From contig OZ244799.1 of NCBI GenBank assembly GCA_965219955.1, positions 3,136,001 through 3,200,000 of the forward strand: a stretch of DNA of 64,000 nucleotides, given 5' to 3'. The notes beneath the pieces are model-generated. The model was not told where the DNA came from. It made no database searches and saw only the letters and a list, made by a program, of their open reading frames with translations. Of the stretch, positions 10,291 to 35,082 are shown piece after piece. The stretch comes from a bacterium (GTDB lineage: Bacteria > UBA8248). The translations under genes and the position numbers were made by a program. How positions within the stretch are numbered: position 1 is the stretch's first letter; each line of letters opens with the position of its first letter.

Positions 10291-10498
10291 AAGAACGTCC
10301 CACCACGAGGCGGTGCGGTTTTGTCCGTCATTCCGGTGTCAGTCCCGGCCGGGGAGGGAGTGATTGTGCGGCCGCGCGGAAAACGGACAGTCTGTGCGTT
10401 TGGAATGTTCGAACTTGAGACCCGGCTTTCTCGCCGTAGCAAAGAAAAGTGACGCACCCCTAAGAACAAGCGCGCCGTGTCCGCAAAGAGGCGCATTG

Positions 10499-10553: not shown

Positions 10554-12056
10554 CTAGATGAAGCCGGCGACGGTGCCCTTCGCCGCGTCCAGGAAGCTGC
10601 CCGGGAAGATGCCCAGCAGAAGCGTCCCCACCACCAGCACCACCATCGCGAAGAAGAGCGAGGGCGCGCTCGAGAGGCTCATCACCTCCTGGGTCTCGCC
10701 CCGGTTCTCCATGTACAACACCATGATGATGCGCCCGTAGTAGTACATCGAGACCGCGCTCATCACGAGCCCGATGGCGGCGAGCCAGTAATACTCGTTC
10801 TGCACCGCCGCGGCGAACAGGTAGAGCTTGCCGACGAAGCCGGCCGTCGGCGGTATGCCGCCGAGCGAGAGCAGGAACACCACGAAGGCCATGCCCGCCC
10901 AGGGATGCGCCTGCCCGATTCCCTTCCAGTCCTCGATGTTGTCGCCCCGGTAGCCGTCGCGGCACACGAGAATCAGCATCCCGAAGGCCCCGAGGTTCGT
11001 GAACAGGTAGGCGAGCAGATAGAACGCCACCGCGCTGATGCCGATGTCGGTGAACGTCACCTTGCCGTCCACGACGCTCATGGAGACCACCACGCCCATC
11101 AGCACGTAGCCCGCATGCCCGATGCTCGAATACGCCAGCATGCGCTTGAGGCTCGTCTGCGCGATGGCCGCCACGTTCCCCCACACCATCGTGAACGCCG
11201 TGAGCACCCACAACAGGGTGTTCCAGCTCTCGGCCATGGCCGGGAACGCCACGAAGAATATCCGCATCAGGGCGGCCACGGTCGCGAACTTGACGGCCAC
11301 GGACATGAAGCCCGTGATCGGCGTCGGCGCGCCCGTATAGGCGTCGGGCAGCCACATGTGGAACGGCGCCAGCGCCAGCTTGAAGCCGAAGCCCGCGACG
11401 AGGAGGATGAGGCCGAAAATCATCGCCGGGTTCTGCGCGATGGCGGCGCCGCCCGAGCCCGCGAACGCCTCCGCGATTCCGCGAATCGAGGTCGTTCCGG
11501 TAAACCCGTAGGTAAGCGCCATGCCGTAGAGCAGGACGCCCGAGGCGAAGGCGCCCATCAGGAAATACTTGAGGCCCGCCTCCCGGCTCAGGGGGTCGTG
11601 CCGCATGAACGCCACGAGCACGTAGATGCTGATGCTCATGGTTTCGAGCCCCAGATAGACGGTGAGCAAATCGTTGCCCGAGGCCATCACGAGCATCCCG
11701 AACACCGAGAAGAGCAGCATGGCGTAGAATTCGCCGTAGTTGATCTTCTCCACCTTTGCGTATTGAAGCATCAGCAGGATGGAGATGGCCGTACAGGCCA
11801 GCACGCACACCTTCACGAACACGCTCATGTTGTCGACTACGTAAAAGCCGTTGAACGTCGTTCTCGCGCCCTCGCCCCATTGCCCGAAGGCGACGAGCCC
11901 CAGGATAACGACCCCCACGAACGCCACGACGCCCACGCGGGATTTGTTCTCCATCGACACGAACAGGTCGAGGATCAGGACCGTGCAGACGAGTATGGCC
12001 AGCCCGATTTCGGGAAGCGCCAGGGATAAGGCGATGTCGGGAATCACCACTTCCAT
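10554..12056 (-). CDS. nuoN: NADH-quinone oxidoreductase subunit N (operon 2)
   Basis: EAGLKYF, FKLALAPFHMW.PD.Y.GAP, KRMLAYSSI.HAGY, GIPPTAGFVGK. Confidence 0.97.
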   Translation of the reverse strand: MEVVIPDIALSLALPEIGLAILVCTVLILDLFVSMENKSRVGVVAFVGVVILGLVAFGQWGEGARTTFNGFYVVDNMSVFVKVCVLACTAISILLMLQYAKVEKINYGEFYAMLLFSVFGMLVMASGNDLLTVYLGLETMSISIYVLVAFMRHDPLSREAGLKYFLMGAFASGVLLYGMALTYGFTGTTSIRGIAEAFAGSGGAAIAQNPAMIFGLILLVAGFGFKLALAPFHMWLPDAYTGAPTPITGFMSVAVKFATVAALMRIFFVAFPAMAESWNTLLWVLTAFTMVWGNVAAIAQTSLKRMLAYSSIGHAGYVLMGVVVSMSVVDGKVTFTDIGISAVAFYLLAYLFTNLGAFGMLILVCRDGYRGDNIEDWKGIGQAHPWAGMAFVVFLLSLGGIPPTAGFVGKLYLFAAAVQNEYYWLAAIGLVMSAVSMYYYGRIIMVLYMENRGETQEVMSLSSAPSLFFAMVVLVVGTLLLGIFPGSFLDAAKGTVAGFI

Positions 12057-12091: not shown

Positions 12092-13639
12092 TTATTTCTC
12101 GAGCTTCGTCATTTTGCCGAGCGCGGCCTTTTGCGGAACCTCCGCCACGTTCACCATCTTCACGACCTTCTTCACGCTCGCCTCCATCCTCCCGAGGAAC
12201 GGCTTGGGATACAGGCCGATCCAGAACATCAGGATGATCAGCGGCATCAGGTAGAGAACCTCGCGCGCGTTGCAGTCGGTGAGCTTCTCGTTCTCCGGAT
12301 TATCCAGCGTCCCGAAGAACACCCGCTGGAAGAGCCAGAGCATGTACGCCGCTCCCAGGACGATGCCGATGACGGCGAACGCGGCGTACACGTAGCTCTT
12401 CTTGAACGCGCCGATGAGGATCAGGAACTCGCCCACGAATCCGTTCAGCCCCGGCAGGCCGATGCTGCTCAGCATCGTGATGGCGAAGAGCACCGTATAG
12501 ACCGGCACGATTTTCGAGAGGCCGCCGTAGTCGGAGATGAGCCGCGTATGACGCCTCTCGTAAACGACGCCCACCAGGAGGAACAAGGCGCCCGTGCTGA
12601 TCCCGTGGTTGATCATCTGGAGCTGTCCGCCGAGCACGCCCTGCTCGTTCAAGGCGAAAACGCCCAGCATCACGAAGCCCAGGTGGCTCACAGAGGAATA
12701 GGCCACCAGTTTCTTGATGTCGGTCTGCGCCATGGCCACCAGCGCCCCGTAGATGATGCCGATGATGGAGAGCAACACCATGAAGGGCACGAAAACCTGG
12801 CTCGCCTGGGGCAGCAGGGGCAGGGCGAAGCGCACGAATCCGTAGGTTCCCATTTTCAACAGGATGCCCGCCAGGATCACGCTGCCCGCCGTGGGCGCTT
12901 CCACGTGCGCGTCCGGCAGCCAGGTGTGGAAGGGGAACATGGGGACCTTGATGGCGAAGCCGATGAAGAACGCCAGGAATATCCATATCTGGAGCGATAA
13001 CGGAATCTTCGGCCCCACGGCGTAGAGTTCCACCAGATCGAACGTGAGGGTCCCGGTGCCCATTTTCAGGTTGGCGAAGTAGTACGCCAGAATTCCCAAC
13101 AGCATCAACACGCTGCCGAACAGCGTATAGAGGAAGAACTTGATCGCCGCGTAGAGCTTCCTCGGCCCGCCCCACACGCCGATGAGGAAGTACATCGGCA
13201 CCAAGGTGATCTCGAAGAACACGTAGAAGAGGAAAATATCGAGCGCGATGAAGGTGCCCAGCATGCCGGTCGCCAGCAAGAGGAGGCAGACGTAGTATTC
13301 TTTTTCGCGCTCCTCGATGGCGGTGAACGAGCACACGACCCCTATGATCATCGTCAGCGTCGTGAGCAGGACGAGCAGCACGCTGATCCCGTCGATGCCG
13401 ACGAAATAGCTCACCCCGATGGTGGGTATCCAGCTCACCTTCTCCACGAACTGAAAGCCGGCTTCGGCCTGATCGAAAAGGAACCATAAGGGAAGTGAAA
13501 TCAGGAAGTCCAAGACCACCACCGCCGTGGCGAAACCCTTGATGGCTTTCGTCTGCTCTTTCTTCATGAAGAGCATGATAATCACCGCGCCCAACGCGGG
13601 CAGGAAGGTGATCAGCGTAAGAAGCGGCATGTTACTCAT
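12092..13639 (-). CDS. nuoM: Subunit M (operon 2)
   Basis: FYVFFE, AIKVPMFPFHTWLPDAHVEAP, LLKMGTY, GFVGEF. Confidence 0.97.
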   Translation of the reverse strand: MSNMPLLTLITFLPALGAVIIMLFMKKEQTKAIKGFATAVVVLDFLISLPLWFLFDQAEAGFQFVEKVSWIPTIGVSYFVGIDGISVLLVLLTTLTMIIGVVCSFTAIEEREKEYYVCLLLLATGMLGTFIALDIFLFYVFFEITLVPMYFLIGVWGGPRKLYAAIKFFLYTLFGSVLMLLGILAYYFANLKMGTGTLTFDLVELYAVGPKIPLSLQIWIFLAFFIGFAIKVPMFPFHTWLPDAHVEAPTAGSVILAGILLKMGTYGFVRFALPLLPQASQVFVPFMVLLSIIGIIYGALVAMAQTDIKKLVAYSSVSHLGFVMLGVFALNEQGVLGGQLQMINHGISTGALFLLVGVVYERRHTRLISDYGGLSKIVPVYTVLFAITMLSSIGLPGLNGFVGEFLILIGAFKKSYVYAAFAVIGIVLGAAYMLWLFQRVFFGTLDNPENEKLTDCNAREVLYLMPLIILMFWIGLYPKPFLGRMEASVKKVVKMVNVAEVPQKAALGKMTKLEK

Positions 13640-13662: not shown

Positions 13663-15684
13663 TCAGCGGAAAAGGTACGCGCTCAGCATCACGAAGATGC
13701 CCAACAGCATCACGAAAAGATAATTCTGAACCATTCCGGATTGCAGGTATTTGAATACCTGGGAGAAAAAGCGGATGAAGCTCGCCGTGCCGTTCACCGC
13801 GCCGTCCACCGTCCGGAGGTCGAAAATGCCCGAGAAGCGGCTCGACACGACGGTGATGAGCGAACTGCCGTTCACCGCGCCGTCCACCACTTTCGCATCG
13901 AAGGTCCACAGGCCGCGCATGAGCTTGTATGTCGGCTCGACGATGCAGGCCTGGTAAATCTCGTCGATATAGTACTTGCCGAGCAGCAGACGATACATGC
14001 CCGTAAAACGCTCGTACAGGCGATTCGGCGCCTCGGTGTCCCTCACGTACATGTGCCACGCCAGGGCGATCCCGCCCACGGCGACGGCGATGGCCAGGAT
14101 GATCAGGAGCACCACGGCAGGCCCGCTGTGCCCGCCGCCGGCCGCGGCGTTCATCAGGTGAACGCCCTGGTCCATGGCGTGGCCGCCCGCCGGCATCTTC
14201 GCCAGAGAGGGCGCCAGGAAGCGGTGTATCCAGCCGGCCTCGGGAGGGAATCCGGGAATCACGCCGCCGATGACGCTCAGGACGGCCAGGATGACGAGTG
14301 GAACCGTCATCGTGGAGGGTGATTCGTGAATGTATTCGCGGGCGTGATGGTCGACGCGCATCTCTCCGTGAAACGTCATGAAGATGAGCCGGAACATGTA
14401 GAAGGCCGTCATGAAGGCCGCAACGGTGCCCATGATCCAGACCGTGTAGTGCCCCGTGAAGAAGGCGTTCGCCAGAATCTCGTCCTTGCTCCAGAAGCCC
14501 GCGAGCGGCGGCACCCCCGCAATGGCGATAGCGCCTATCAGGAACGTCCAGTACGTGATGGGCATCTTGTCCTTCAAGCCGCCCATGTAGCGCATGTCCT
14601 GCTGCTGATCCTCGGGCGCGTGGTGAAGCGCGTGGATGACGCTGCCGCTGCCCAAAAAGAGCAGGCCCTTGAAGAAGGCGTGGGTCATCAGGTGGAAGAT
14701 GCCGGCCGTGAATGCGCCCACGCCCAGCGCCATGAACATGAAGCCGAGCTGGCTCACCGTGCTGTAGGCGAGCACGCGCTTGATGTCGTTTTGCACCAGG
14801 CCGATGCTCGCGGCGAACAGGCCCGTGAGCGCGCCGACGATGGCGATGACGCTCATCGCGTCCGGCCCCATGACGTAGATGGGGCTCGTGCGCGCGACCA
14901 TGTAGACGCCCGCCGTCACCATGGTGGCGGCGTGGATGAGCGCGCTCACAGGGGTGGGGCCTTCCATGGCGTCGGGAAGCCAGACGTAGAGCGGAATCTG
15001 CGCGCTCTTGCCGATGGCGCCGACGAACAGCAGGAGACCGACGGCCGAGGCCGCCGCCGCGCTCATCTCGGGAGCCGCCTTGAAGACCTCCGTGTAGGTG
15101 AGGCTGCCGGTCAGCGTCCAGATGAGGAACATGCCGAGCAGAAAGCCCGCGTCGCCGATGCGGTTGACGATGAACGCCTTTTTGCCCGCGTCGGAAGCGG
15201 ATTGCTTCTCGTACCAGAAGCCGATGAGCAGATAGCTGCAAAGGCCCACGCCCTCCCAGCCGACGAACATGACGAGATAGTTGTCGCCCAGCACCAGGAG
15301 GAACATCGAGAGCATGAACAGGTTGAGCCAGGTGAAAAAGCGCGGGTAGCCCGGGTCTCCGTGCATGTAGCCCACGGCGTAGACGTGCACCAGAAAGCCC
15401 ACGCCCGACACCACGAGCAGCATGATGGTGCTCAGCGGATCGATCAGGAAGCTCATGGACACGCTGAGGCTCCCCGCTTCCACCCACGTCCAGAGCGGCA
15501 CGGTGTGGCTGCCGCCCGCGCCGAATATCATCTCTACGGCGATGCCCAGCACCACGAGAAACGACAGGCCCGCCATGACGGAAGCGATGGGGCCCGCCTT
15601 CTCGCCCACGTTCTTTCCGAAGAATCCGTTGATCAGAACCCCGATCACCGGAAAAACGGGAATGAGCCAAGCCAGTTCGATCAT
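13663..15684 (-). CDS. nuoL: Subunit L (operon 2) with 26-aa duplicated transverse helix
   Basis: GKSAQIPLYVWLPDAMEGPTP, HAFFK; FD...VDGAVNG occurs twice, 26 aa apart. Confidence 0.97.
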   Translation of the reverse strand: MIELAWLIPVFPVIGVLINGFFGKNVGEKAGPIASVMAGLSFLVVLGIAVEMIFGAGGSHTVPLWTWVEAGSLSVSMSFLIDPLSTIMLLVVSGVGFLVHVYAVGYMHGDPGYPRFFTWLNLFMLSMFLLVLGDNYLVMFVGWEGVGLCSYLLIGFWYEKQSASDAGKKAFIVNRIGDAGFLLGMFLIWTLTGSLTYTEVFKAAPEMSAAAASAVGLLLFVGAIGKSAQIPLYVWLPDAMEGPTPVSALIHAATMVTAGVYMVARTSPIYVMGPDAMSVIAIVGALTGLFAASIGLVQNDIKRVLAYSTVSQLGFMFMALGVGAFTAGIFHLMTHAFFKGLLFLGSGSVIHALHHAPEDQQQDMRYMGGLKDKMPITYWTFLIGAIAIAGVPPLAGFWSKDEILANAFFTGHYTVWIMGTVAAFMTAFYMFRLIFMTFHGEMRVDHHAREYIHESPSTMTVPLVILAVLSVIGGVIPGFPPEAGWIHRFLAPSLAKMPAGGHAMDQGVHLMNAAAGGGHSGPAVVLLIILAIAVAVGGIALAWHMYVRDTEAPNRLYERFTGMYRLLLGKYYIDEIYQACIVEPTYKLMRGLWTFDAKVVDGAVNGSSLITVVSSRFSGIFDLRTVDGAVNGTASFIRFFSQVFKYLQSGMVQNYLFVMLLGIFVMLSAYLFR

Positions 15685-15691: not shown

Positions 15692-15994
15692 CTACCACTT
15701 CAAAAGGTTGACTTCGTCCACGTTGACCATCGTACGGTCGCGGTTCAGGGCGATGAGAATCGCAAGTCCCACGGCCGCCTCGCACGCCGCCACCGTGATG
15801 ACGAAGATCGCGAACACCTGTCCCGTCATATCCGCCAGATGGCGCGAGAAGCCCACGAAAGTCACGTTCACGGCGTTGAGCATCAATTCGATCGACAACA
15901 GGATGATGATGGCGTTGCGGCGCATCAGCACGCCCATCGCGCCGATGAGGAACAAGATGGCGCCCAGGACTAGAAAATGGGTCATCGATATCAT
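15692..15994 (-). CDS. nuoK: Subunit K (operon 2)
   Basis: 100 aa; [20 protein letters not shown]. Confidence 0.96.
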
Positions 15995-16013: not shown

Positions 16014-16523
16014 TTATCGCTCTATCCTGCGCTTCGCGAGAACGATGGCGCCGATCATCGCGGCCAGCAGGAGGATGGAGGCCACCTCGAAAGGGAACAG
16101 GAATTTCGTGTACAGGACCGCGCCCAGGGCCTCGACGTTGCCCGGCGTGGCTCCCAGCGACCACTCCCATTGCTTGGGCTTCGCGAACTCCACATCCCCC
16201 AGCACGGCCCATATTTCCAGGCCCAGCAGGACGGCCGCCACGAGCACCACGACGCCCTGGCGGTGCCACTGCCGCATCCGCACGGCCACCTCCACGTTCA
16301 TCAGCATGATCGAGAACAGGTAGAGCACCATGATGCCGCCCGCGTAGAGCAGAATCTGCACCGCCGCCAGAAACTCCGCTCCCGCCAGCACGAAGACGCC
16401 CGCGAGGAAGAAGAACGTCAGCACCAGCAGCAAGGCCGCGTGAATCACGTTCGCGCGCGTGATCATCAGCAAGGAGGTGAGGATCATCCCGCCTGCGAAC
16501 ATATAGAAGAAATATAGCTCCAC
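16014..16523 (-). CDS. nuoJ: Subunit J (operon 2)
   Basis: [29 protein letters not shown]. Confidence 0.95.
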
Positions 16524-16542: not shown

Positions 16543-17514
16543 TTACAAGAACAGGTACTTCAGGAATCCGGTCAGGAAAATGTTGATCATCACGAGCGGG
16601 AACATGAACTTCCAGCCCACGCGCATCAGCTGATCGTAGCGGTAGCGCGGCAGCGTCGCCCGCAACCATATGAACACGAACATGAATACGGAGAGCTTCA
16701 GCATGTACCAGACGAAGCCGGGAAGCGGAATGAAATCCGGTCCTTCCCATCCGCCGAAGAACAGCACGATGCCCACCGTCGATACGACAAACATGTTGGC
16801 GTATTCCGCCAGAAAGAAGAACGCGAACTTCATCCCGCTGTATTCGGTGTGGAAGCCCGCCACGAGTTCGGTCTCCGCCTCGGGCAGGTCGAAGGGCGCG
16901 CGGTTCGTCTCCGCCATCGCCGCGATGAAGAAGACGATAAAGGCTATCGGCTGATAGAACACGAACCACACGTCGCTCTGCGCGTGCACGATCTCCTGTA
17001 AGTTCATGGAACCCGCGAGCATCAGCGGCCCGATGACGGAGAAGCCCAGGAAAATCTCGTAGCTCAGCATCTGCGCCGCGCTCCTGAGCGCGCCCAGAAG
17101 CGAGTACTTGCTGTTCGAGGCCCAGCCCGCCATCACGATGCCGAACACGCCGAGCGAACTGATCGCCAGGATGAAGAACAGCCCGATGTTGATTTGCGTG
17201 ATGTAGAACGTCGCGCTGAAGGGCAGCACCGCGTAGACGACCAGGGCGGGCACCAGCACCATCACGGGCGCCAGGACGAACACGATGCGGTCCGACTTGT
17301 CGGGGATGATGTCTTCTTTCAGGAACAGCTTCAGTCCGTCCGCTATCGGCTGGAGAAGCCCGTGCCAGCCCACGCGCATGGGTCCCAGGCGCATCTGGAC
17401 GTGGGCGATCACCTTTCGCTCGACGTAGATCGTATACGCCACCGCGAGCTGCACGACGTTTACTACGATGAATATCTTTATCGCGGCGACCGCGATTTCA
17501 AGCGCCATGTCCAA
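16543..17514 (-). CDS. nuoH: Subunit H (operon 2)
   Basis: [37 protein letters not shown]. Confidence 0.97.
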
Positions 17515-18698: not shown

Positions 18699-19289
18699 CT
18701 AGTCGCCGATTTCCTTGCGCTTCGGCTTGGTGTAAATCCGCTCTCCCCGGCCCTCCAGGGGATAGTCCTTTCTCATCGGATGGCTGCCCCAGTTGTCGGG
18801 CAGTAGTATCCGCCGCAAATCCGGATGGTCCTCGAATTCGATGCCGAACAAATCGTACACCTCGCGCTCCATCCAGTCCGCGCTGCTCCATACCCCCGAA
18901 ACCGTAGGCATGGACTGACCATCCTTGATCCGCACCTTCAGGCGAAGCCTGCGGTTATGCTCGATGCTATAGAGGTGATACAGCACCTCGAAGGGATTTT
19001 CGGCCTCCGGGTAGTGCGTCGCGGTCAGGTCGGTGAGGAGCTCGAAATGCGAATCGCCGTGATCACGAAGATGGGTGGCCACGGCGACGATGGCATCGAA
19101 CCCCACGACGAACGTCGCCTCGTCCTCCTCGTCCTGGTAGGCGCTCTGCTCCAGGACGGCTCCCGGAAACGCCGATTCCACCACTTCCTTCAAATCCTCG
19201 CCGGGCGGGGTCTTCACCTCTTCGGCGGATTCCTCGGATTCAGGCGCGCCGTCCGTCTGCTCGCTGTTTTCCACTGCTTCGTCGGACAT
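18699..19289 (-). CDS. nuoC: Subunit C (operon 2)
   Basis: W.EREVYDLFGI.F..HPDLRRIL, HPMRKDYP; acidic N-terminal extension. Confidence 0.95.
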   Translation of the reverse strand: MSDEAVENSEQTDGAPESEESAEEVKTPPGEDLKEVVESAFPGAVLEQSAYQDEEDEATFVVGFDAIVAVATHLRDHGDSHFELLTDLTATHYPEAENPFEVLYHLYSIEHNRRLRLKVRIKDGQSMPTVSGVWSSADWMEREVYDLFGIEFEDHPDLRRILLPDNWGSHPMRKDYPLEGRGERIYTKPKRKEIGD

Positions 19290-19315: not shown

Positions 19316-19792
19316 TTACCGGCGGACGTATTTTTCCTGTTCAATTTTTTTCTGAAGCTGCATGACGCCCCACATCAAGGATTCAGGCCTGGGCGGGCAA
19401 CCCGGAACGTAGACGTCCACCGGGATGATTTCATCCACTCCCTGCATCACCGCATAGTTCGCGTACGGGCCGCCGCAGGTGGCGCAGTTGCCCATCGCGA
19501 TCACCCAGCGCGGCTCGGGCATCTGATCGTAGACCTTGCGAATCGCGTCCCCCATCTTGTGGGTGACGGTGCCCGCCACGATGATCACGTCGGACTGGCG
19601 CGGCGTGGCGCGGAAGATCACGCCGAAACGGTCGAAATCGTAGCGCGCAGCACCCGAGGCCATCATCTCGATGGCGCAGCACGCAAGTCCGAAGGTCATC
19701 GGCCATAGCGCGCTCTTTCTCGCCCAGGCGACCAGGCTGTCGACTTTCGACGTGATGAAGTTGTCGCTGAACTTGCCCTCGACTAAGCCCAC
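19316..19792 (-). CDS. nuoB: Subunit B (operon 2)
   Basis: [22 protein letters not shown] (N2 ligands); GTG start overlaps the nuoA end. Confidence 0.96.
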
Positions 19793-20184
19793 TCCAACGC
19801 TCCTTTTCTCCAAGCGTAGAAATAACCCACCAACAGGATGGCGATGAACAGCATCATCTCGATGAATCCGAACAGCCCGAGCGCGTCGTAGCGCACCGCC
19901 CAGGGGAAGAGGAACAAGGCCTCCACGTCGAAAAGCAGGAACAGGATGCCCAGCAGGTAGAACCGGATGGAGAAGCGCTCGTGCGCCTCCATCAGCGGGG
20001 GCATGCCGCACTCGTACGGGGAGTTCTTCTCGGGGTCCGGGTTGTTCGGGCGGATGACCAGCGCGATGATCAGAATGCTCCCGGCAAGAGCGGCCGCCAT
20101 GAGCGTGATCAGGAAAATGGGGATGTAGGGATTGATGACCTGATAATCCCTGAAAAATGCGCCGACAACTTCCATCGCATCCAT
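19783..20184 (-). CDS. nuoA: Subunit A (operon 2)
   Basis: PYECG, FDVE..FLFPWA, GALEW. Confidence 0.96.
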
Positions 20185-20329: not shown

Positions 20330-20353
20330 CAACCGAAAAACCAACCCCCGGGG

Positions 20354-21832
20354 TCAATTAAAAAAGACTGTGGAACGATGGGCGAAATCCAGCACCGAGG
20401 AGGGGAAAATCCCCAGCTGCAGGGTGCTCGCGACGGCGAGCGTGAGCGCCGCGACCGCATAGGACCAGCCCGGATGCGGAGCGGATTTCGCGACTCCGCC
20501 CTGCGGTTCACTCATGTACATCACCACGACGAGCCGCAGGTAATAATACACGGCCACCACGCTGTTGAGCACTGCTATCACGGTCAGCCAGACGTACCCG
20601 CCGTTCAGCGCCGCACTGAACACGTGGAATTTCGCCACGAAACCCCCGGTGGGCGGGAGACCCGAGAGCGACACCATGAACACGGCCATCGCCGCCGCCA
20701 GCCCTGGCCGGAAAGAGGCCAGACCCGCGAGATTGTCGATCTTCGTGCCGCCGTCCTCGCGCATGTTCGAGATGAGGATGAGCACGCAGAAAGCGCCCAT
20801 GTTCATGAAAACGTAGACGAGCATGTAGTACAGGAAACCGCTCGTGGCCAGTTCCGCGCTCGTGCGCGAGGCCACGAGCGCGACCATGAGATAGCCGGCG
20901 TGGGCGATGCTCGAATAGGCGAGCATCCGCTTCACGCAGGTCTGCCAGATGGCGATGAGGTTCGCCAGGCTCATCGTGAGGACGGCCATCACCCACAAGA
21001 CCGTATCGAAACTCCCGCCGGCGTCGCCCGTGGAGAGAAAAACCCGGAAAAACGCGGCGAAAGCCGCCGCCTTCGGACCCACGGACATGAACGCCGTCAC
21101 CGCGGTGGGCGCGCCTTCGTATACGTCGGGCGTCCACATGTAAAACGGCGCCGCGGCCACCTTGAAGCCCAGGCCCACCACCATGAAGCCCAGGCCCATC
21201 AGGAAGGCCGCCCCTCGCGAGGCGGGATTCTCGTGAAGCCGCGTCGCGATTTCGATCAGGTCGACCGAGCCGGTGGCGCCGTAGACGAGCGCCATGCCGT
21301 AGAGCAGGAAACCCGAGGCGAACGAACCGAGCAGAAAGTATTTGAGCGACGCCTCGTTGCCCTCGGGCCGGGCGCGCAAATAACCCGCCAGGACGTAGAG
21401 CGACAGGGAGAACACCTCGAGGCCCACGAAGATCATCAGCAGGTTCCGCGTCGCCGCCATGAGCATCATGCCCGAAGTCGCGAAGAGGATGAGGCCGAAA
21501 TACTCGCCCGCCGGCGTATCGTCCAACTCCCGCTGGGCCGCGGCGATGAGGACCGAGAATATGCTCGCGAACAGGATGACGACGTAGAGGAATTGCGTGA
21601 ACCCGTCGAAGAGATACATGCCGCCGAACGACGCGGCCAGACCCGGCAGGGTCCGCGCGCCGAGCGTCACGCCCAGGGCGGCGGCCAGCGTCACCAGCGT
21701 GATGATGATGATGACGGAGCGCTCCCCCTTGGCGAAAAAGGCGTCCCACATCAAAACCAGGACCGCCCCGCACACCGGCAGGATCACCGGCAGCAGGTAT
21801 CCCCAATGGATGGTGGGATGAACGATATCCAA
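20354..21832 (-). CDS. nuoN: Subunit N (operon 1)
   Basis: EASLKYF, FKVAAAPFYMWTPDVYEGAP, KRMLAYSSIAHAGY. Confidence 0.97.
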   Translation of the reverse strand: MDIVHPTIHWGYLLPVILPVCGAVLVLMWDAFFAKGERSVIIIITLVTLAAALGVTLGARTLPGLAASFGGMYLFDGFTQFLYVVILFASIFSVLIAAAQRELDDTPAGEYFGLILFATSGMMLMAATRNLLMIFVGLEVFSLSLYVLAGYLRARPEGNEASLKYFLLGSFASGFLLYGMALVYGATGSVDLIEIATRLHENPASRGAAFLMGLGFMVVGLGFKVAAAPFYMWTPDVYEGAPTAVTAFMSVGPKAAAFAAFFRVFLSTGDAGGSFDTVLWVMAVLTMSLANLIAIWQTCVKRMLAYSSIAHAGYLMVALVASRTSAELATSGFLYYMLVYVFMNMGAFCVLILISNMREDGGTKIDNLAGLASFRPGLAAAMAVFMVSLSGLPPTGGFVAKFHVFSAALNGGYVWLTVIAVLNSVVAVYYYLRLVVVMYMSEPQGGVAKSAPHPGWSYAVAALTLAVASTLQLGIFPSSVLDFAHRSTVFFN

Positions 21833-21834
21833 AG

Positions 21835-23382
21835 CTATTTCACCTCGACTCTATGCGCATAGGCGAGCGCGCTCTTTCGCAATTTCCGCTCGGGCGCTTC
21901 CTCCACGCGCAGCACCCGCCGGTTCACCTGCGAAAGCCAGGCCTGGGCCGAGGGCTCGATGCGGTTGAACAGCGGCTTGGGATACAACCCGATCCAGAAC
22001 ATGAGGGCCACCATGGGCAGCATGACGAGCCACTCGCGCCTGTTCATGTCGGGGAGCCCCAGGTTCGCCCGCACGCTCACCTCGCCGAACAGGACGCGCT
22101 GGAGCATCCAGAGCATGTAGACGGCGGAGAGAACCACGCCGGTGGCCGCGATGACGGCGAACCAGGCGTTGCGCTCGAACGCGCCCAGCAGAATCGTGAA
22201 CTCGCCCACGAAGCCGTTCAGCCCCGGCAGGCCGATGCTGCTGAGCGCCGTGATGATGAAAAACGTGGAAAACACGGGCATCACCCGGAGCAGCCCGCCG
22301 AACTCATCGATCTGCCTCGTGTGCCGCCTCGAATAGATGAAGCCCACGATCAGGAAGAGCGCCCCGCTGCTGATGCCGTGGTTCACCATCTGGATGACGC
22401 TCCCCGAAGCGCCCAGAAGGTTGAAAGAGAAAAGCCCCAGCATCACGAAGCCCAAGTGACTCACCGAGGAGTAGGCCACCAGCTTTTTCACGTCGGTCTG
22501 CACCATGGCCATGAGCGCCCCGTAGATGATCCCCACCAGCGCCAGGCAGATGATGAGGAACGCGAACTCGCGCGCCGCCGTCGGGAACAGCGGCATCGCC
22601 AGCCGCATGAAACCGTAGGTGCCCATCTTCAGGAGGACGCCGGCGAGGATGACGCTTCCCGCCGTGGGCGCTTCCACGTGGGCGTCGGGCAGCCAGGTGT
22701 GGAACGGGAAAATCGGCACCTTGATGGCGAAGGATATGGCGAACGCGGCGAACAGCCACGGCTGGAGGGCGGCGTCCACCGGCTCGCGGAAATGCGCGAG
22801 GATGTCGAACGTGCCGACCCCGCTCGCGAAATACAGCCAGATGATCGCCACGAGCATCAGCACGCTCCCGGCCATGGTGTAGAGGAAGAACTTGACGGCC
22901 GCGTAGATCCGGCGGCCTCCGCCCCAGACCCCAATGATGAGGTACATCGGAATCAGCATTCCTTCCCAGAAGACGTAGAACAGGAAGAAATCGAGCGCGA
23001 AGAAGACCCCGAGCATCCCCGTCTCCAGGAACAGCAGGGACATGTAGTAGAGCCGCGTCTTTTTCCGCACGTCGTCGAAGGAGAAGAGGATCGCGACCGG
23101 CGTCAGGATGGTGGTCAGCATCACGAGCAGCAGGCTGATGCCGTCCACGCCCACCTTGTAGGAAATCCCGAACCTCGGGATCCACGCCGCTTCCTCGACG
23201 AACTGCATGCCCGCGTAATCGGGCCGGAAACCCAGGTACATCACGGCCGAAAGAGCGAACGTAACGAGGGAGACCGCCAGCGCGAACGCGCGGACGCCGC
23301 CGTCTCTTCCCTCGCGCAGGAGAAGGAGCAGCAGGCCCCCCAGCATGGGCAAGAACAGTATCGAGGTGATTATTCCAGGCAT
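21835..23382 (-). CDS. nuoM: Subunit M (operon 1)
   Basis: FYVFWE, AIKVPIFPFHTWLPDAH, FVGEF. Confidence 0.97.
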   Translation of the reverse strand: MPGIITSILFLPMLGGLLLLLLREGRDGGVRAFALAVSLVTFALSAVMYLGFRPDYAGMQFVEEAAWIPRFGISYKVGVDGISLLLVMLTTILTPVAILFSFDDVRKKTRLYYMSLLFLETGMLGVFFALDFFLFYVFWEGMLIPMYLIIGVWGGGRRIYAAVKFFLYTMAGSVLMLVAIIWLYFASGVGTFDILAHFREPVDAALQPWLFAAFAISFAIKVPIFPFHTWLPDAHVEAPTAGSVILAGVLLKMGTYGFMRLAMPLFPTAAREFAFLIICLALVGIIYGALMAMVQTDVKKLVAYSSVSHLGFVMLGLFSFNLLGASGSVIQMVNHGISSGALFLIVGFIYSRRHTRQIDEFGGLLRVMPVFSTFFIITALSSIGLPGLNGFVGEFTILLGAFERNAWFAVIAATGVVLSAVYMLWMLQRVLFGEVSVRANLGLPDMNRREWLVMLPMVALMFWIGLYPKPLFNRIEPSAQAWLSQVNRRVLRVEEAPERKLRKSALAYAHRVEVK

Positions 23383-23418
23383 TCGCCCCTCACGCTCCTC
23401 AAAGAATCGAAAGAATCA

Positions 23419-25323
23419 TCAGCGCGCCGTGAGATACAGCAGAATCACCAGCGCGCCGACCAGCATCGAAACGGCGTAGCTCTTCACGTAGCCCGTCTGG
23501 AGGCGTCTCAGGACGCCGCCCAGGGATCGCACGAAAATGCCCGCCCCGTTCACGGCCGCGTCCACCAGGCCGTCCTCGAACGCTCGCCAGCACCAGATCG
23601 ACGCCCGCTTCACCGGTTGTACGATGCAGGCGTCGTATATCTCGTCCACGTAATACTTGTTCACCAAAAGGCGGTGAACGCCCGGCCAGAGTTCCGCGTA
23701 CGCGCTGCCGCCGTCGTTTTTCAGCACATAGAGATTATAGGCCGCGTAAATGCCGACGAAGGCGATGGCGAGCGAGAACACCATCATCAACAACTCGAAC
23801 ACCACCTCGTGGTGCGCCTCTACGTGACCGCCGAAAGAAGGAGCGAGGAAATCACCGAAAATGTTCGCTCCCGTGATGATCGGAATCCCCACCCAGCCGC
23901 CGATGATGGAGAGCGCCGCCAGCGCCTGAAGCGGGATCGTCATGCTTCTGGGAGATTCATGGACTTTCTGCTGCTCCTCCAGGCTCAGGTTGCAGGTGCC
24001 GAAGAATACCCGGAACAGGAGCCTGAACATGTAGAACGCGGTCATCAGCGCGCCGGCCGCGCCGGCGAGCCACAGGAGGATTCCGCCGCGCTCGGCCGTC
24101 ATGGCCGAATAGAGAATGGCGTCCTTGCTGAAGAATCCGGCGAAGGGGAATACGCCCGCGATGGCCAGCGCGCCGATCACGAAGGTGTTGCTCGTTCGCG
24201 GCAGCGCCGCCTGGAGTCCGCCCATCCTGCGGATGTCCTGCTCGCCGTCCAGCGCGTGGATCACGCTCCCCGCGCCCAGGAACAGGAGCGCCTTGAAGAA
24301 CGCATGGGTCATCAGGTGGAAGATCGCCGCGGAGAACGCCCCCACGCCGCAGGCCAGAAACATGTAGCCCAACTGGCTCACCGTGCTGTAGGCGAGCACC
24401 TTCTTGATGTCGGTCTGCACCAGGGCGATGGACGCCGCCATCAACAGCGTGAGCGCTCCGATGACGGCCACCACGAGCATCGCCGCCGATGAGAGTTCGA
24501 AGAGCACGTGCGTTCTCGCCACCATGTAGACGCCCGCCGTCACCATCGTCGCCGCGTGTATCAGGGCGCTGACCGGGGTGGGACCTTCCATCGCGTCGGG
24601 CAGCCAGACGTAAAGCGGAATCTGCGCGCTCTTGCCCGTCGCGCCCGCGAAGAGCAGCAGGCAGATGATCGTCGCCGCCGCGCTCTCGGGACCGAGCAGC
24701 CCGGGGGCTTTTGCGAACACCTCCGAGAAATCCAGCGAGCCGACGACGCTGTAGATGTAGAAGAGCGCTATCAGGAAGCAGAAATCACCCACCCGGTTCA
24801 CGATGAAGGCCTTCTTGCCGGCCTCGGCCGCCGCCTTGCGCTCGTACCAGAAGCCGATGAGCAGGTAGCTGCACAGGCCCACCGCCTCCCAGCCCACGAA
24901 CATGACCAGGAAGTTATCGCCCAGAACCAGCGTGAGCATCGAGAGCGAGAAGAGGTTCAGATAGATGAAATAGCGCACCACGCCGCGATCATGGTGCATG
25001 TAGCCCATCGAGTAGAGGTGGATGAGCGCTCCTACGCCGGTGACGACCAGCGCCATGACGGCCGAGAGCGGATCGAGCGAGAAGCCCGCCTCGACCTCGA
25101 AGGCGCCCACGGGAATCCACTCGAACAGGACGACGCGGATGAGACGCGCCTTCTCGGGCATCGCCAGCAGGCGGAGCCAGCTCACGAGCGACGCCGCGAA
25201 CGCGAGCGCCATCGCCAGCGTCGCGGTCCAGCCGGCGAATTTCTCCCCGCGCTTCCAGCCGAAGATCAGGTTCACCAGCACGCCGATGAGGGGGAACGCC
25301 AATATGAGGGTCAGACTATCCAT
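23419..25323 (-). CDS. nuoL: Subunit L (operon 1), normal-length helix
   Basis: GKSAQIPLYVWLPDAMEGPTP; single VDAAVNG. Confidence 0.97.
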   Translation of the reverse strand: MDSLTLILAFPLIGVLVNLIFGWKRGEKFAGWTATLAMALAFAASLVSWLRLLAMPEKARLIRVVLFEWIPVGAFEVEAGFSLDPLSAVMALVVTGVGALIHLYSMGYMHHDRGVVRYFIYLNLFSLSMLTLVLGDNFLVMFVGWEAVGLCSYLLIGFWYERKAAAEAGKKAFIVNRVGDFCFLIALFYIYSVVGSLDFSEVFAKAPGLLGPESAAATIICLLLFAGATGKSAQIPLYVWLPDAMEGPTPVSALIHAATMVTAGVYMVARTHVLFELSSAAMLVVAVIGALTLLMAASIALVQTDIKKVLAYSTVSQLGYMFLACGVGAFSAAIFHLMTHAFFKALLFLGAGSVIHALDGEQDIRRMGGLQAALPRTSNTFVIGALAIAGVFPFAGFFSKDAILYSAMTAERGGILLWLAGAAGALMTAFYMFRLLFRVFFGTCNLSLEEQQKVHESPRSMTIPLQALAALSIIGGWVGIPIITGANIFGDFLAPSFGGHVEAHHEVVFELLMMVFSLAIAFVGIYAAYNLYVLKNDGGSAYAELWPGVHRLLVNKYYVDEIYDACIVQPVKRASIWCWRAFEDGLVDAAVNGAGIFVRSLGGVLRRLQTGYVKSYAVSMLVGALVILLYLTAR

Positions 25324-25335
25324 GATTCCTTAGCT

Positions 25336-25638
25336 CTATAGCTTCAGTAGGTTGATTTCGTCCAGGTCGGTGGATTCGCGGTTGCGGTAGATCAGCACCA
25401 CGATGGCCAGCCCGATGGCGGCCTCCGCCGCGGCCACCGCCATCACGAAAAACACGATCATCTGGCCCGCCATCGAATCGAGGTACCGGCCATAGGCCAC
25501 GAACGCCAGGTTCGCCCCGTTCATCATCAACTCGATGCACAAGATGACGACGATGGCGTTTCTGCGCACCACGACGCCCACGACGCCCAGGGAGAAGAGA
25601 ACCGCGCTCAGAATCAGGTAATGCTCGAGCGGCGCCAC
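25336..25638 (-). CDS. nuoK: Subunit K (operon 1)
   Basis: [16 protein letters not shown]. Confidence 0.96.
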
Positions 25639-25650
25639 GTCCCATCCCTC

Positions 25651-26169
25651 CTAGCGGCTTCGCCTGCGCGCCAGTACCACGGCGCCGACGATGCCCACGA
25701 ACAACAAGACGCCCATGGCCTGAAACGGCAGGACGTAATCCGTCAACAACAGATTTCCGATGACCTGCGTGTTGCCCAGCTCATCCACGCGCTCGGGCGG
25801 AAAACTCCCCTTCTTGCCCGTCATGAGGGAGGTGGAGAGGAATATCTTGAGCAGCACGCTAAAGAGGGCGAGCCCCGCGATAGCCCCCAGCATCTTCTGG
25901 CCGGGAAGACGCAACTCCCGCTTCTCCTCACGGTCCAGGTTGATCAGCATCACGACGAACAGGAAGAGCATCATGATCGCGCTGGCGTAGATGATCACCT
26001 GAACGATGGCGACGAACTGCGCGTGAAGCGAGAGGTACAGCCCGGCGAGACCCAGGAAGGTCAGTATCAGGGCAAGCACGCTGTAGAGCGGGCTGGGGAA
26101 CGCGACGACGGCTATCGCGCCCACCGTCGTCACCACCGCCAGGAAATAAAAAAACAGGGAACTGGCCAC
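25651..26169 (-). CDS. nuoJ: Subunit J (operon 1)
   Basis: QVIIYASAIMMLFLFVVML; position between nuoI and nuoK. Confidence 0.95.
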   Translation of the reverse strand: MASSLFFYFLAVVTTVGAIAVVAFPSPLYSVLALILTFLGLAGLYLSLHAQFVAIVQVIIYASAIMMLFLFVVMLINLDREEKRELRLPGQKMLGAIAGLALFSVLLKIFLSTSLMTGKKGSFPPERVDELGNTQVIGNLLLTDYVLPFQAMGVLLFVGIVGAVVLARRRSR

Positions 26170-26214
26170 TACCGCCCTTCCTCCAGCGGGCGGGCGCCCG
26201 CCTGAAATCGAACC

Positions 26215-26694
26215 CTAGACATACGTGAGCAGGTTTTTCTCGTCATAGCGGGCATGAAGCTCCGGGTAATCCTCTGTACGCTCCACAATCAAATCGCCCT
26301 TCTCGTAGAGGAACTTGCCGCGATCGTCCTGGCAGAATTCATACTCGTTGCCCAGCACGACCGCGCCGACCGGGCAGGCTTCTTCGCAGTATCCGCAAAA
26401 GATGCAGCGAAGCTCGTTGATCTCGTAAATGCTGGCGTAGCGCTCGCCCTTGGAAGTCGGCGCCTCGGGGTCGTTCTCCTCCGATTCCACATAAATGCAA
26501 TCCACGGGACACGCCGCCGAGCAGAGCTTGCACCCCACGCAGCGCTCCAGGCCGTCCTCCCAGCGCAGCAGCTTGTGGAGGCCGCGGTAGCCCACGGGCA
26601 TCTCCTCTTTGACGTCGGGGTATTGCACGGTCACGCGGTTTTTGAAGGAATGCTTGATCGTCAGCCACAATCCCCTGCAAATCTCGCCTAACAT
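26215..26694 (-). CDS. nuoI: Subunit I (2x[4Fe-4S])
   Basis: CVGCKLCSAACP and CIFCGYCEEACP. Confidence 0.97.
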   Translation of the reverse strand: MLGEICRGLWLTIKHSFKNRVTVQYPDVKEEMPVGYRGLHKLLRWEDGLERCVGCKLCSAACPVDCIYVESEENDPEAPTSKGERYASIYEINELRCIFCGYCEEACPVGAVVLGNEYEFCQDDRGKFLYEKGDLIVERTEDYPELHARYDEKNLLTYV

Positions 26695-26721
26695 GAAATC
26701 TCCTCCCCCTTACACGGCCCG

Positions 26722-27702
26722 CTAGCCCAGGAAAACGACGGCGCCGGCCGTGAGCATCACGTTCAGGATGGACAGCGGCAGAAGCACCTTCCACCCGAAA
26801 CCCATCAGTTGGTCATAGCGCAGGCGCGGCGTGGAGGCGCGCAGCCACATGAAGAAGAACATGAACGCCAGCACCTTGATCAGGAACCACACGACGGGCG
26901 GCAGCAGCGGCCCGCGCCATCCGCCGAGGAAAAACGTCGCCCCCACCGCCGAGAGCGTGATCATGCTGCAGTACTCGGCGATGGAGTAAACCGCAAAGTG
27001 CATGCTGCTGTATTCGGTATGAAAACCGCCGGTGAGCTCGCTCTCGGCCTCGGGCAAATCGAACGGCGCCCGGTTCGTCTCCGCCAGCATGCAGATGACG
27101 AAGAGCAGAAACCCCAGGGGCTGCAAGACGATGTAGGGCATACCGGCCTGGGCCTCGACGATCCCCTTCAGGCTCAGGGTGCCCGAGATCATGACAACGC
27201 CCAGAAGCGACATGCCGAGCGAGAGTTCGTAGCTGATGAGCTGCGCCGCCGAGCGAAGCCCGCCGATGAGCGGGTACTTGCTGTTCGACGCCCATGAGCC
27301 GAGCACGATGCCGTACACGCCGATGCCCGCCATGGCGAAGATGTAGAGAATGCCGACGTTGATGTCGGCCAGCACCAGATCCACCTTCTGTCCGAGCACG
27401 GTCACGGAATCGCCGAAGGGCACCACGGCGAAGGCGGCCAGCGCCGGAATGAGCGTGACGGCCGGCGCGAGGAGGTAAATCACCTTGTCCGCCTGCGCGG
27501 GAATGATGGTTTCCTTGAACATGAGCTTGATGCCGTCGGCGATGGGCTGCAAAAGCCCCGACGGCCCCACGCGGTTGGGCCCCACCCGCACCTGTATGAG
27601 CGCGAACACGCGCCGCTCCATCCAGGTCATGTAGGCGGCGAGCAGCAAAAGCCCGCCGAAGCCCACGAGCACTTTCCCGAGGATGATGAGCAGACTGGCC
27701 AT
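26722..27702 (-). CDS. nuoH: Subunit H (operon 1)
   Basis: [31 protein letters not shown]. Confidence 0.97.
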   Translation of the reverse strand: MASLLIILGKVLVGFGGLLLLAAYMTWMERRVFALIQVRVGPNRVGPSGLLQPIADGIKLMFKETIIPAQADKVIYLLAPAVTLIPALAAFAVVPFGDSVTVLGQKVDLVLADINVGILYIFAMAGIGVYGIVLGSWASNSKYPLIGGLRSAAQLISYELSLGMSLLGVVMISGTLSLKGIVEAQAGMPYIVLQPLGFLLFVICMLAETNRAPFDLPEAESELTGGFHTEYSSMHFAVYSIAEYCSMITLSAVGATFFLGGWRGPLLPPVVWFLIKVLAFMFFFMWLRASTPRLRYDQLMGFGWKVLLPLSILNVMLTAGAVVFLG

Positions 27703-30300: not shown

Positions 30301-30317
30301 CTATCGTCTCTCCCCCA

Positions 30318-31622: not shown

Positions 31623-31633
31623 TTTCAGGCCCC

Positions 31634-32233
31634 TCAGCCCTGGACTTCGCCGTCTGGTTCTTCGGCGCCTGCCAGAGCGGGCGTTACCACCTCGTCCGCC
31701 CCGATGGGCGAGACGACCTCGCCCTTTTCCAGCGCGCTGAAGATATCGTTCATGATCTCGGGCGTGACGCCCTCGAAGTAGTGTTCGTTTACCTGCACGC
31801 AGGGAGCGCCCCCGCACGCGCCCAGGCACTCGACCGCCTCGATCGAGAACTTCCCGTCCTCGCGCGTGTGGCCGGTGCGGCAATCCAGGCGGTTTTCGAT
31901 CTCGCGCAGCAGCCTGCCCGCTCCCATGAGGGCGCACGAGAGGTTGTTGCACACCTGCACGTGGTATTCCCCGATGGGCTGGGTCTTGAGCATGGTGTAA
32001 AAGCTCACCACGCCCCACACCTCCATGGGGGAGACCTCGAAAATCTCGGCCACATGCTGCATCACAGCACTTGTGATGAAGCCCTCCTGCTCCTGGGCCA
32101 GTTGAAGCGCGGGGATGAGGGCCGAGCGTTTTACCGGATACTTGGCGATGATGCGCTCCAGTTCCGCGCGGTTCTCGGGCGTGAACTCGAAGCGCTCTTC
32201 CTGTCCGGAATGGGGAAACCGTATCAACGCCAA
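31634..32233 (-). CDS. nuoE: Subunit E
   Basis: SFY, VCNNLSC, ECLGACGGAP ([2Fe-2S]). Confidence 0.96.
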   Translation of the reverse strand: MALIRFPHSGQEERFEFTPENRAELERIIAKYPVKRSALIPALQLAQEQEGFITSAVMQHVAEIFEVSPMEVWGVVSFYTMLKTQPIGEYHVQVCNNLSCALMGAGRLLREIENRLDCRTGHTREDGKFSIEAVECLGACGGAPCVQVNEHYFEGVTPEIMNDIFSALEKGEVVSPIGADEVVTPALAGAEEPDGEVQG

Positions 32234-32257
32234 AACAATACCACCCTCTGTTTCACT

Positions 32258-33481: not shown

Positions 33482-33499
33482 AACCAGCTCCCGTAGTCC

Positions 33500-34060: not shown

Positions 34061-34170
34061 CGGCTCAATCCTTTATTTTTCAAATGTTTGTTTCACTTTA
34101 CGAACAAGCCCGCATCCTGTATTCGCACCGGTTTTCAACTCAGGTGGCGTGGGGGGCTTTCGCGCATCTT

Positions 34171-34668
34171 CTAAAGCGAGGTGACGCCGGAATCCTCTCG
34201 GTAGAGCGTTTCATCCGCAATCTTCGCCTGGAGCTTCATGATCCCGTCGATGAGCGTCTCGGGACGCGGCGGGCAGCCCGGCACGTAGATATCGACGGGC
34301 ACGACTTCGTCCACGCCCTGCACGAGGGCGTAGTTGTTGAATATCCCGCCCGTGGACGCGCACGCGCCCATCGAGATCACCCATTTCGGTTCGGGCATCT
34401 GATCGTATATCTGCCGGAGCACGGGCGCCATCTTCCGCGACACCCGGCCCGCCACGATCATCAAATCCGCCTGGCGGGGCGACGCGCGGAACACCTCGGC
34501 GCCGAAGCGCGAAATGTCGTATTTCGCCGCCGAGGTCGACATCATCTCGATAGCGCAGCACGCCAGCCCGAAAAGCGCGGGCCACAGGCTGTTCTTGCGC
34601 GCCCATTTGATGACGTCGGTCGCGCGGCCCAGCACCACCTGGCCTTCGAGTTGTTGTTCTAGTCCCAT
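34171..34668 (-). CDS. nuoB: Subunit B (operon 1)
   Basis: [26 protein letters not shown]. Confidence 0.96.
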
Positions 34669-35015: not shown

Positions 35016-35082
35016 TTCCCGCCCCCACGGCGCTCGGACACGCGCCTTTTTCTCATGCCACATGGGATGTCAAATCGAGCGC

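Follow-up and report, generated by a model that had tools for sequence, protein, structure and literature searches.

A complex I operon that combines a lengthened NuoL helix with a single nuoM is located in the 64,000-bp stretch G000:C1:3136001-3200000 (the window) of a 4.28-Mb single-contig bacterial genome. It is the second of two nuo operons arranged head to tail on the minus strand and will be referred to as operon 2. Its NuoL (NuoL2) carries a tandem duplication in the lateral helix HL, and only one nuoM (nuoM2) follows. Family matches show that operon 2 and an orphan nuoI at another site of the genome encode what is predicted to be a complex-I-type enzyme of 11 subunits (NuoA-D and NuoH-N) that lacks NuoEFG. 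This layout with a long helix, one nuoM and no nuoE, nuoF and nuoG is conserved across the phylum-level group of the window genome and is also found in at least three other phyla. The reading tentatively favoured here, at somewhat less than an even chance, is a four-module membrane arm L-M-M-N in which the nuoM2 product would be used twice and HL would serve as the ruler.

The proton-to-electron ratio of complex I sets the energy gain of the cell or, in reverse flow, its cost. Until now, variants with an extra pump have been identified from the presence of a second nuoM. A screen for adjacent nuoM pairs would miss an operon like this one, as the first-pass annotation of the window had pointed out.

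Tandem repeat and constraint in helix HL

Two exact 23-nt copies are located 78 bp apart at 13788-13810 and 13866-13888. When up to 3 mismatches are allowed, the 23-nt repeat has 2 matches in the window compared to 0.00 expected from 100 shuffles. The copies encode V-VDGAVNG on the minus strand within two 26-residue units of NuoL2, which match each other at 10 of 26 residues and 42 of 78 bases. When 71 non-redundant NuoL proteins were aligned (MAFFT), the KYYxDExY-to-LQxG span comprised 81 residues for NuoL2 and 56 for NuoL1 from operon 1. Hence, the tandem unit, the spacing of the copies and both spans given in the first-pass annotation were reproduced. NuoL2 and NuoL1 (51% identity in BLASTP) differ here by one clean 25-column block, BLASTP shows an equal gap, and repeat unit 1 constitutes this insert relative to canonical NuoL. 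The helix had been described as 26 residues longer: this holds for the repeat period, whereas the net gain is 25 columns.

Among the 71 NuoL proteins, the span is bimodal: 49 fall at 55 to 57 residues (55, n = 1; 56, n = 31; 57, n = 17), 22 at 81 or 82 (81, n = 21; 82, n = 1) and none in between. Neither repeat unit contains a gap in any of the 22 long NuoL, which come from several phyla. Mean pairwise identity among them reaches 52% in unit 1 and 44% in unit 2, compared to 42% in transmembrane helix (TM) 15, 50% in the stretch from LQxG through TM16, 66% in the core and 18% in the loop that precedes TM15 and is rich in indels. The motif D..VDG.VN is retained in both units. To judge from this alignment, the insert is under constraint: Its fixed length, the lack of indels and a conservation at the level of helices are unlike a decaying leftover or a floppy loop.

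The AlphaFold2 (AF2) model of NuoL2, based on a 62-row alignment, has a mean pLDDT (predicted local distance difference test) of 83.9 and places helix at residues 570-625, 627-630 and 634-672. From KYY to the C-terminus, about 103 residues are helical compared to 77 in the NuoL1 control. The insert is thus predicted to be helical.

A second, unrelated insert of NuoL2 relative to NuoL1 (14122-14205, residues ~494-521) lies in the loop before TM15. It is rich in Gly, Ala and His and has an AF2 pLDDT below 50.

Comparison with two-nuoM operons and NuoM phylogeny

The two-nuoM operons L058, L059 and L145 have the gene order ...K-L-M-M-N and a NuoL span of 81. Their NuoL proteins carry the tandem motif FDxxIIDGxVNG ... 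FDxxxVDGxxN in the same columns as NuoL2. The proposed resemblance to NuoL of complexes with two NuoM (2M) is borne out by the alignment, as both place and length of the insert equal those in these three operons. They provided the 2M sequences for the comparison.

NuoM2 is 55% identical to NuoM1. In a quick NuoM tree, all 23 long-helix NuoM and 40 short-helix NuoM were found on opposite sides of a branch with a support of 96 in the SH-like approximate likelihood ratio test (SH-aLRT), and a more careful analysis with 29 rows gave the long-helix clade a support of 97/96. Both NuoM copies of L058 and L145 fall inside the clade of NuoM2. Judged by these trees, NuoM and the long helix have diverged together in different phyla; this speaks for a single origin of the enzyme type. 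The clade opens in a polytomy of the L-proximal 2M NuoM, the distal 2M NuoM, the NuoM of L045 and L123, and a group of 13 single NuoM (support 92/96). When the 2M copies were constrained as sisters, the tree was not rejected (approximately unbiased (AU) test, p = 0.217).

Antiporter-like genes in the genome and in relatives

Eight genes of the genome belong to PF00361: six nuoLMN genes as well as those for MrpA and MrpD (assigned by NCBIfam) at 448-452 kb. A search of the whole genome with PF00361 and NCBIfam models revealed no orphan nuoM. There are two nuoM in all, one per operon, and NCBIfam assigns one NuoM and one NuoN to operon 2. Hence, the single nuoM noted at first stands, also after the genome-wide search that had been suggested. 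No conserved extra gene was found in or beside operon 2, whose neighbours are operon 1 at one end and convergent genes at the opposite end.

Two class-level relatives, G027 and G028 (2.1 Mb, 95% complete), contain only the operon-2 type and exactly three PF00361 genes. A NuoF was found in neither of them at E <= 1e-10. Since both lack operon 1, the operon-2 enzyme type appears to work without it. Furthermore, with three pump genes in these genomes, any fourth module would be a second copy of one of their own antiporter subunits.

Distribution of long-helix operons with one nuoM

Seventeen loci of relatives and 80 named ones were surveyed. The closest named relatives of the window genome are 'Nitrospinota bacterium' metagenome-assembled genomes (MAGs). 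Among the 51 genomes of the phylum-level group, 42 contain a full-length L2-type match and 5 more contain it in pieces on short contigs. The remaining 4, with a completeness of 67-92%, have either short-type matches only (2) or none at the threshold (2). Every operon-2-type locus of the group reads ABCDHJK-L(long)-M-N with one nuoM and with intergenic gaps too small for another. A second nuoM was found in none of 27 operon-2 loci surveyed for this phylum group (17 relatives, including L044 and L045 of other phyla, plus 10 named loci and L062). The idea that close relatives might reveal a degenerate 2M locus was therefore not supported: The locus is not visibly of this kind. The tandem pairing of operons 1 and 2 is retained in most of the phylum group.

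Among loci L032-L128, 36 encode a long-helix NuoL. It is followed by M-N in 32 cases, by M-N-H in 1, by M alone in 1 and by M-M-N in 2. L060 was counted as long based on the 71-NuoL alignment, as the regular-expression count had misread it. The proposed survey for long-helix NuoL with a single operonic nuoM thus yielded many examples in several phyla. Outside the group of the window genome, these are L060 (a Methylomirabilis MAG), L066, L071, L073, L082 and L121 (Acidobacteriota), L045 and L123 ('delta'-type MAGs) and L134 (a Desulfobacterota genome). The stretch between nuoD and nuoH lacks nuoE, nuoF and nuoG in 30 of the 36 long-helix loci, contains them in 1 (L058, a two-nuoM operon) and was not judgeable in 5. 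In the short-helix loci, the three genes are present in 30, absent in 2 and not visible in 37, with L060 misfiled among the latter.

A NuoM2 search at E <= 1e-130 in 121 Acidobacteriota genomes resulted in 106 genomes with a match and none with an adjacent pair; this threshold would overlook a second nuoM of greater divergence. The unpublished G101 and G126 are counted in this tally, but they contributed no sequence and support no conclusion. In Desulfobacterota, 100 of 151 genomes searched have a match, and adjacent nuoM pairs are present in 2 (G042, G274). Twenty loci from this phylum comprise 1 with a long helix and one nuoM, 1 with a long helix and two nuoM, 17 with a short helix and one nuoM, and 1 with two MrpD-like genes in place of nuoL. 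No full-length L2-type match was found in the 33 genomes of the group to which L100 belongs.

Some long-helix operons show variations in gene content or order. In a Bryobacteraceae MAG (L121:15221-16339), nuoH comes after nuoN. In an Acidobacteriota MAG (L088:4346-12648), no nuoN follows nuoM. The operon of the Methylomirabilis MAG (L060:5894-9800) has no nuoI between nuoH and nuoJ, as in the window, and nuoB was not detected there.

Number of modules in the membrane arm

Adjacent antiporter-like subunits are joined at their TM7 helices by HL (PMC7419157), and the length of HL has been linked to an extra NuoM (PMC9040806; PMC6606698). The 25-26 added helical residues would, at 1.5 Å each, extend HL by ~38 Å, roughly one antiporter-like subunit. 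The duplicated piece would be the middle, NuoM-facing module of HL. In this mechanism, HL would measure out four modules, and the arm would be L-M-M-N with NuoM2 at two places. The four-module reading is favoured because the insert equals that of the two-nuoM operons, is apparently constrained, and no other pump gene exists. Such an arm would translocate five rather than four protons per two electrons, which would suit a reaction with low driving force or a reverse reaction with a ferredoxin-like partner. Ferredoxin is the usual proposed partner of relatives without NuoEFG (PMC3578206, PMC6606698).

With yet more reserve, it can be proposed that one NuoM in two neighbouring positions, set by HL as ruler, might represent a stable and widespread class in the phylum group, Methylomirabilis, Acidobacteriota and Desulfobacterota, perhaps intermediate to two-nuoM operons. 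If the long NuoL helix alone marks four pumps, such enzymes would be far commoner than gene-pair screens suggest. There would be whole lineages whose sole complex I is of the four-pump type, and HL would prove to be a ruler for assembly. In addition, it would become possible to test in which order the features of 2M enzymes evolved. With three pumps in the arm, helix length would be no predictor of pump number, and the structural argument for 2M complexes would need revisiting.

Several points weigh against the four-module arm. The two NuoM of four-module operons are only 51% identical to each other, which suggests that the two positions differ. To our knowledge, there is no precedent for the product of one antiporter-subunit gene in two non-equivalent positions of complex I. 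The agreement with ~38 Å relies on an assumed width of an antiporter subunit. In the NuoL tree calculated with the helix columns removed, the best topology requires 5 changes of helix length, while the well-supported branches force 1; its weak backbone does not allow a count of how often the insert arose. The NuoM trees would allow two nuoM as the ancestral or as the derived state. In the AF2 model of NuoL2, pLDDT is below 50 at residues 621-636, and the NuoL1 control is one unbroken helix (557-633) in which HL and TM16 are merged. As the control merges them, the monomer models say nothing about geometry, i.e. about a straight extension or a detour. Furthermore, no long-helix NuoL was noticed among the PDB matches of NuoL2 (Foldseek, phmmer), although the helix was not inspected in every chain; these matches are canonical NuoL, ND5, NdhF and MrpA chains. 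A predicted complex of two NuoM2 copies (residues 1-495, 23-row alignment) scored 0.00 against a mark of 0.42, with its controls not folded, and counts neither for nor against the four-module arm.

The main rival, considered somewhat less probable, is a three-module arm (L-M-N), where the 25 added helical residues would have a function but serve no fourth pump. TM16 might dock further along beside NuoK, NuoJ or NuoA as a longer brace in an enzyme without NuoEFG, HL might follow a bent path, or the insert might bind lipid or a small subunit. This is consistent with one nuoM in 33 of the 36 long-helix loci (32 M-N and the one in which nuoH follows), plus L134, and with the low AF2 confidence around unit 2. 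In addition, the long helix goes with the loss of NuoEFG in 30 of 31 judgeable loci, so that the insert could relate to that module. However, among the long-helix operons the NuoEFG genes are kept only in L058 and, to judge from the gene order, in L059 and L145, the very operons that have two nuoM. The repeated motif is shared by both units, and the absence of a conserved extra gene in or beside operon 2 does not favour an additional small subunit. A wider arm does not account for the longer helix either, because the operon 2 subunits are no larger than those of operon 1: NuoM2 and NuoM1 both have 515 aa, NuoN2 has 500 aa vs 492 for NuoN1, and NuoJ2 169 aa vs 172 for NuoJ1.

It is improbable that the long helix is a relic of an ancestral nuoM pair which bulges out without a function after one nuoM was lost. 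Both 2M NuoM branch at the polytomous base of the long-helix clade, so that the trees permit an ancestral pair of which one member was later lost, and the paired 2M NuoM are as divergent as NuoM2 and NuoM1. By contrast, a functionless bulge is hard to reconcile with a span fixed at 81-82 residues in 22 of 22 non-redundant long NuoL and with indel-free units that are conserved like the neighbouring helices, whereas a real loop of the same protein is rich in indels and has 18% identity. That the constrained tree, in which the 2M copies are sisters and would stem from a later lineage-specific duplication, is not rejected also speaks against the relic.

The first-pass annotation had suggested that NuoM1 from the adjacent operon might fill the fourth slot. 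This explanation, extended to a borrowing of NuoI and NuoEFG, is very unlikely. It would agree with the tandem arrangement of the operons 170 bp apart and with the retention of this pairing in most of the phylum group. However, borrowing is not needed in G027 and G028, where the long-helix operon occurs alone with its three PF00361 genes and no NuoF. Long-helix operons with one nuoM in other phyla are not similarly located beside a canonical operon, and a dedicated orphan nuoI exists. Moreover, RNA contigs end in the spacer between the operons, and a terminator-like hairpin follows nuoN1 (see below).

The two exact 23-nt copies might point to a local duplication of recent date or to an artefact of assembly. 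Both are refuted by the 71-NuoL alignment and by a comparison of the repeat in 37 long NuoL genes: All 37, from independent assemblies and several phyla, contain it with a period of 26, the units of NuoL2 agree at little more than half of their bases, and the stretch is present in RNA and DNA runs of several studies. The exact run measures 3-23 nt overall and 10-23 nt within the genus, and it shrinks to 10-21 nt in close relatives by synonymous changes. Since it varies in this way while the period stays 26, the 23-nt identity is no sign of a recent event. It fits a conserved heptapeptide combined with GC-biased codons. On this comparison, the tandem duplication is ancient and no local oddity.

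NuoI and the missing NADH module

Inspection of the open reading frames and their neighbours between nuoD2 and nuoJ2 revealed no nuoE, nuoF, nuoG or nuoI in operon 2, and the 19-bp spacer between nuoH2 and nuoJ2 contains no nuoI. The annotation had listed all four as missing. This is correct for E, F and G, whereas NuoI is encoded ~280 kb away, outside the window. The orphan nuoI (G000:C1:3479793-3480164; L129:7662-8216, minus strand) encodes 184 aa with a TIGR01971 match of 121.7 bits (cut-off 113.05) and 39% identity to NuoI1. It is presumed to serve operon 2, because G027 and G028, two genomes without operon 1, also possess it. Its neighbours are a thioredoxin reductase gene (TIGR01292) and a quinolinate phosphoribosyltransferase-like gene, and the nuoI-trxB pairing is common to G027, G028 and G032. 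A ferredoxin-NADP reductase beside the orphan nuoI was considered and rejected, as TIGR01292 denotes thioredoxin reductase.

Just one other NuoF-like gene was found in the genome. It encodes a fused NuoE/NuoF-like protein of 549 aa and is located beside the gene for a formate dehydrogenase alpha subunit. As it belongs to a formate dehydrogenase, it was rejected as a module for operon 2. The alpha subunit gene (L133:4267-8667; G000:C1, ~1.134-1.139 Mb) matches TIGR01591 with 790.8 bits, and its product has a NuoG-like N-terminus.

Relation to known complexes

Chadwick et al. reportedly described 2M complex I in 2018 (ISME J) as having a second NuoM and a NuoL helix that is ~26 residues longer. 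Like operon 2, 2M complex I has an HL longer by ~26 residues at the same place, and some of its clades also lack NuoE and NuoF (PMC6606698; PMC9040806). Extra proton pumping and reverse electron flow to ferredoxin were proposed for it (PMC6606698; PMC9040806) and might apply here. By contrast, the second nuoM that defines 2M complex I is absent from operon 2 and from the genome.

By the published description, a mismatch between helix length and gene number has been reported before, in a different phylum (Yu et al. 2022, PMC9040806). 'Ca. Manganitrophaceae' encode NuoL proteins with HL inserts and no extra nuoM in the complexes. Two readings were offered, a complex that already holds an extra subunit or an evolutionary transition (Yu et al. 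2022, PMC9040806). Complex_I_1 and Complex_I_2 of this family are, on that description, like operon 2 in having an HL insert and three pump genes (PMC9040806). However, these clusters are described as canonical in gene content and order (PMC9040806), whereas operon 2 belongs to a different phylum and lacks E, F, G and I at the locus. In 'green' complex I, two MrpD-like subunits replace NuoL, which provides another route to a fourth pump (PMC9040806). A similar layout is found in Desulfobacterota at L135 (G278:C17:35500-43200), where an M2-like nuoM (62% identity) and a nuoN have no normal nuoL ahead. Upstream of this nuoM are the end of an antiporter-like gene and an L-like gene whose divergent product of 609 aa is 27% identical to NuoL2. 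By contrast, NuoL2 is a single NuoL of the normal type with a duplication in the helix.

Nitrospina gracilis, a bacterium named as Nitrospinota, has a second complex I, NUO-2, for which reverse electron flow from quinol to ferredoxin was proposed (Lücker et al. 2013, PMC3578206). Unlike operon 2, NUO-2 is scattered (nuoACHIJKLMN and nuoEGD, with nuoB2 and nuoF2 each by itself), and it possesses modified NuoE, F and G of its own (PMC3578206). Helix length is not mentioned for it in the available portion of that text (PMC3578206).

The breadth of the long-helix, one-nuoM class without NuoEFG was not found in the literature searched, which included passages of PMC3578206 and PMC10839748, and neither were genomes with the long-helix type as the only complex I or a single clade of long-helix NuoM. 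These points may be contained in Chadwick 2018 or in supplements, and long-helix operons with one nuoM may be listed in Chadwick 2018 or in Fig. S2 of Yu et al. 2022.

Cyanobacterial NDH-1 is another relative in gene content. Like the operon 2 enzyme, it comprises A-D and H-N without E, F and G, and a ferredoxin-type donor is plausible. The NDH-1 structures 6hum, 6khj and 6l7o are among the fold matches of NuoL2. However, NdhF of NDH-1 aligns as a normal NuoL, and the operon 2 enzyme has no subunits specific for oxygenic photosynthesis and an unlinked nuoI.

Occurrence and transcription

The operon 2 stretch (10554-20184) is present at half or more of the sampled words in 14 sequencing runs, among them sponge and marine metagenomes, and partly present in 6 RNA runs; these 20 runs belong to 8 studies, which suggests that the lineage recurs as an associate of sponges. 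With 93-99% identity, contigs from 4 RNA libraries of 2 studies (sponge, marine) extend over the greater part of operon 2. These data are assembled contigs without expression levels or M:L ratios, and DNA carry-over in the libraries is possible. One 1.9-kb contig spans nuoN2 through nuoM2 into nuoL2. In 4 of 4 runs, the contigs over nuoA2 stop at 20257-20299 within the spacer after nuoN1, one of them with adaptor letters. Together with the terminator-like hairpin after nuoN1, these stops give a weak hint that operon 2 is transcribed separately, possibly from its own start in the 170-bp spacer.

Layout of operon 2

Operon 2 (20184-10554) has the gene order nuoA2, B2, C2, D2, H2, J2, K2, L2, M2, N2 and is separated by 170 bp from nuoN1 (Table 1). 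All of its genes match their own Pfam or NCBIfam family, the seven membrane subunits A, H, J, K, L, M and N above the cut-off. The NuoB2 translation contains cysteines and the GCPP motif, which would bind cluster N2. NuoD2 is ~27 aa shorter than NuoD1, which had been regarded as a sign of an unusual enzyme. This could not be upheld: NuoD2 matches the 366-position NuoD profile NF008974 over its full length and is, by this match, an ordinary NuoD.

Table 1. Features of operon 2 and its surroundings (positions in the window)
Feature	Position	Strand	Match or comment
Operon 1, canonical 14-gene nuoA1-N1	20354..35063	-	short-helix NuoL1 at 23419-25323
Terminator-like hairpin at nuoN1 end, ahead of nuoA2	20339..20359	-	consensus scan
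nuoA2, first gene of operon 2	19783..20184	-	Pfam Oxidored_q4, 134.7 bits
nuoB2 (start codon uncertain)	19316..19771	-	Pfam Oxidored_q6, 103.8 bits
nuoC2	18699..19289	-	Pfam Complex1_30kDa, 155.6 bits
nuoD2, 380 aa	17527..18669	-	TIGR01962 NuoD, 513.1 bits (cut-off 459.35)
nuoH2	16543..17514	-	Pfam NADHdh, 435.3 bits
nuoJ2	16014..16523	-	Pfam Oxidored_q3, 138.4 bits
nuoK2	15692..15994	-	Pfam Oxidored_q2, 105.3 bits
nuoL2, 673 aa, long-helix form	13663..15684	-	NF005141 NuoL, 754.9 bits (cut-off 556)
Lateral helix HL of NuoL2, residues 570-650 (KYYIDEIY ... LQSG), 81 residues	13735..13977	-	71-NuoL alignment
Repeat unit 1, residues 595-620 (FDAKVV...SGI)	13825..13902	-	contains 23-nt copy 13866-13888
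Repeat unit 2, residues 621-646 (FDLRTV...FKY)	13747..13824	-	contains 23-nt copy 13788-13810
TM16, last transmembrane helix of NuoL2, residues ~651-672	13669..13734	-	AF2 helix; conserved QxG..QNY motif in alignment
nuoM2, 515 aa, sole nuoM of operon 2	12092..13639	-	TIGR01972 (NDH_I_M), 639.9 bits
nuoN2, 500 aa, last gene of operon 2	10554..12056	-	TIGR01770 (NDH_I_N), 439.9 bits; NuoM model 150.8
Terminator-like hairpin after nuoN2	10451..10476	-	consensus scan alone

Additional observations

In G011, a relative from the same genus, a fragment (L048:3789-4079 and L049) that is 98% identical to residues 404-500 of NuoN2 is located ~1.3 kb downstream of an intact nuoN2. The MrpA and MrpD genes of the window genome belong to an Mrp-type antiporter cluster (L001:8024-13741; G000:C1, ~448-454 kb). 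The MrpA frame (929 aa) begins ~150 residues before the profile matches, which may reflect either a later start codon or an N-terminal extension.

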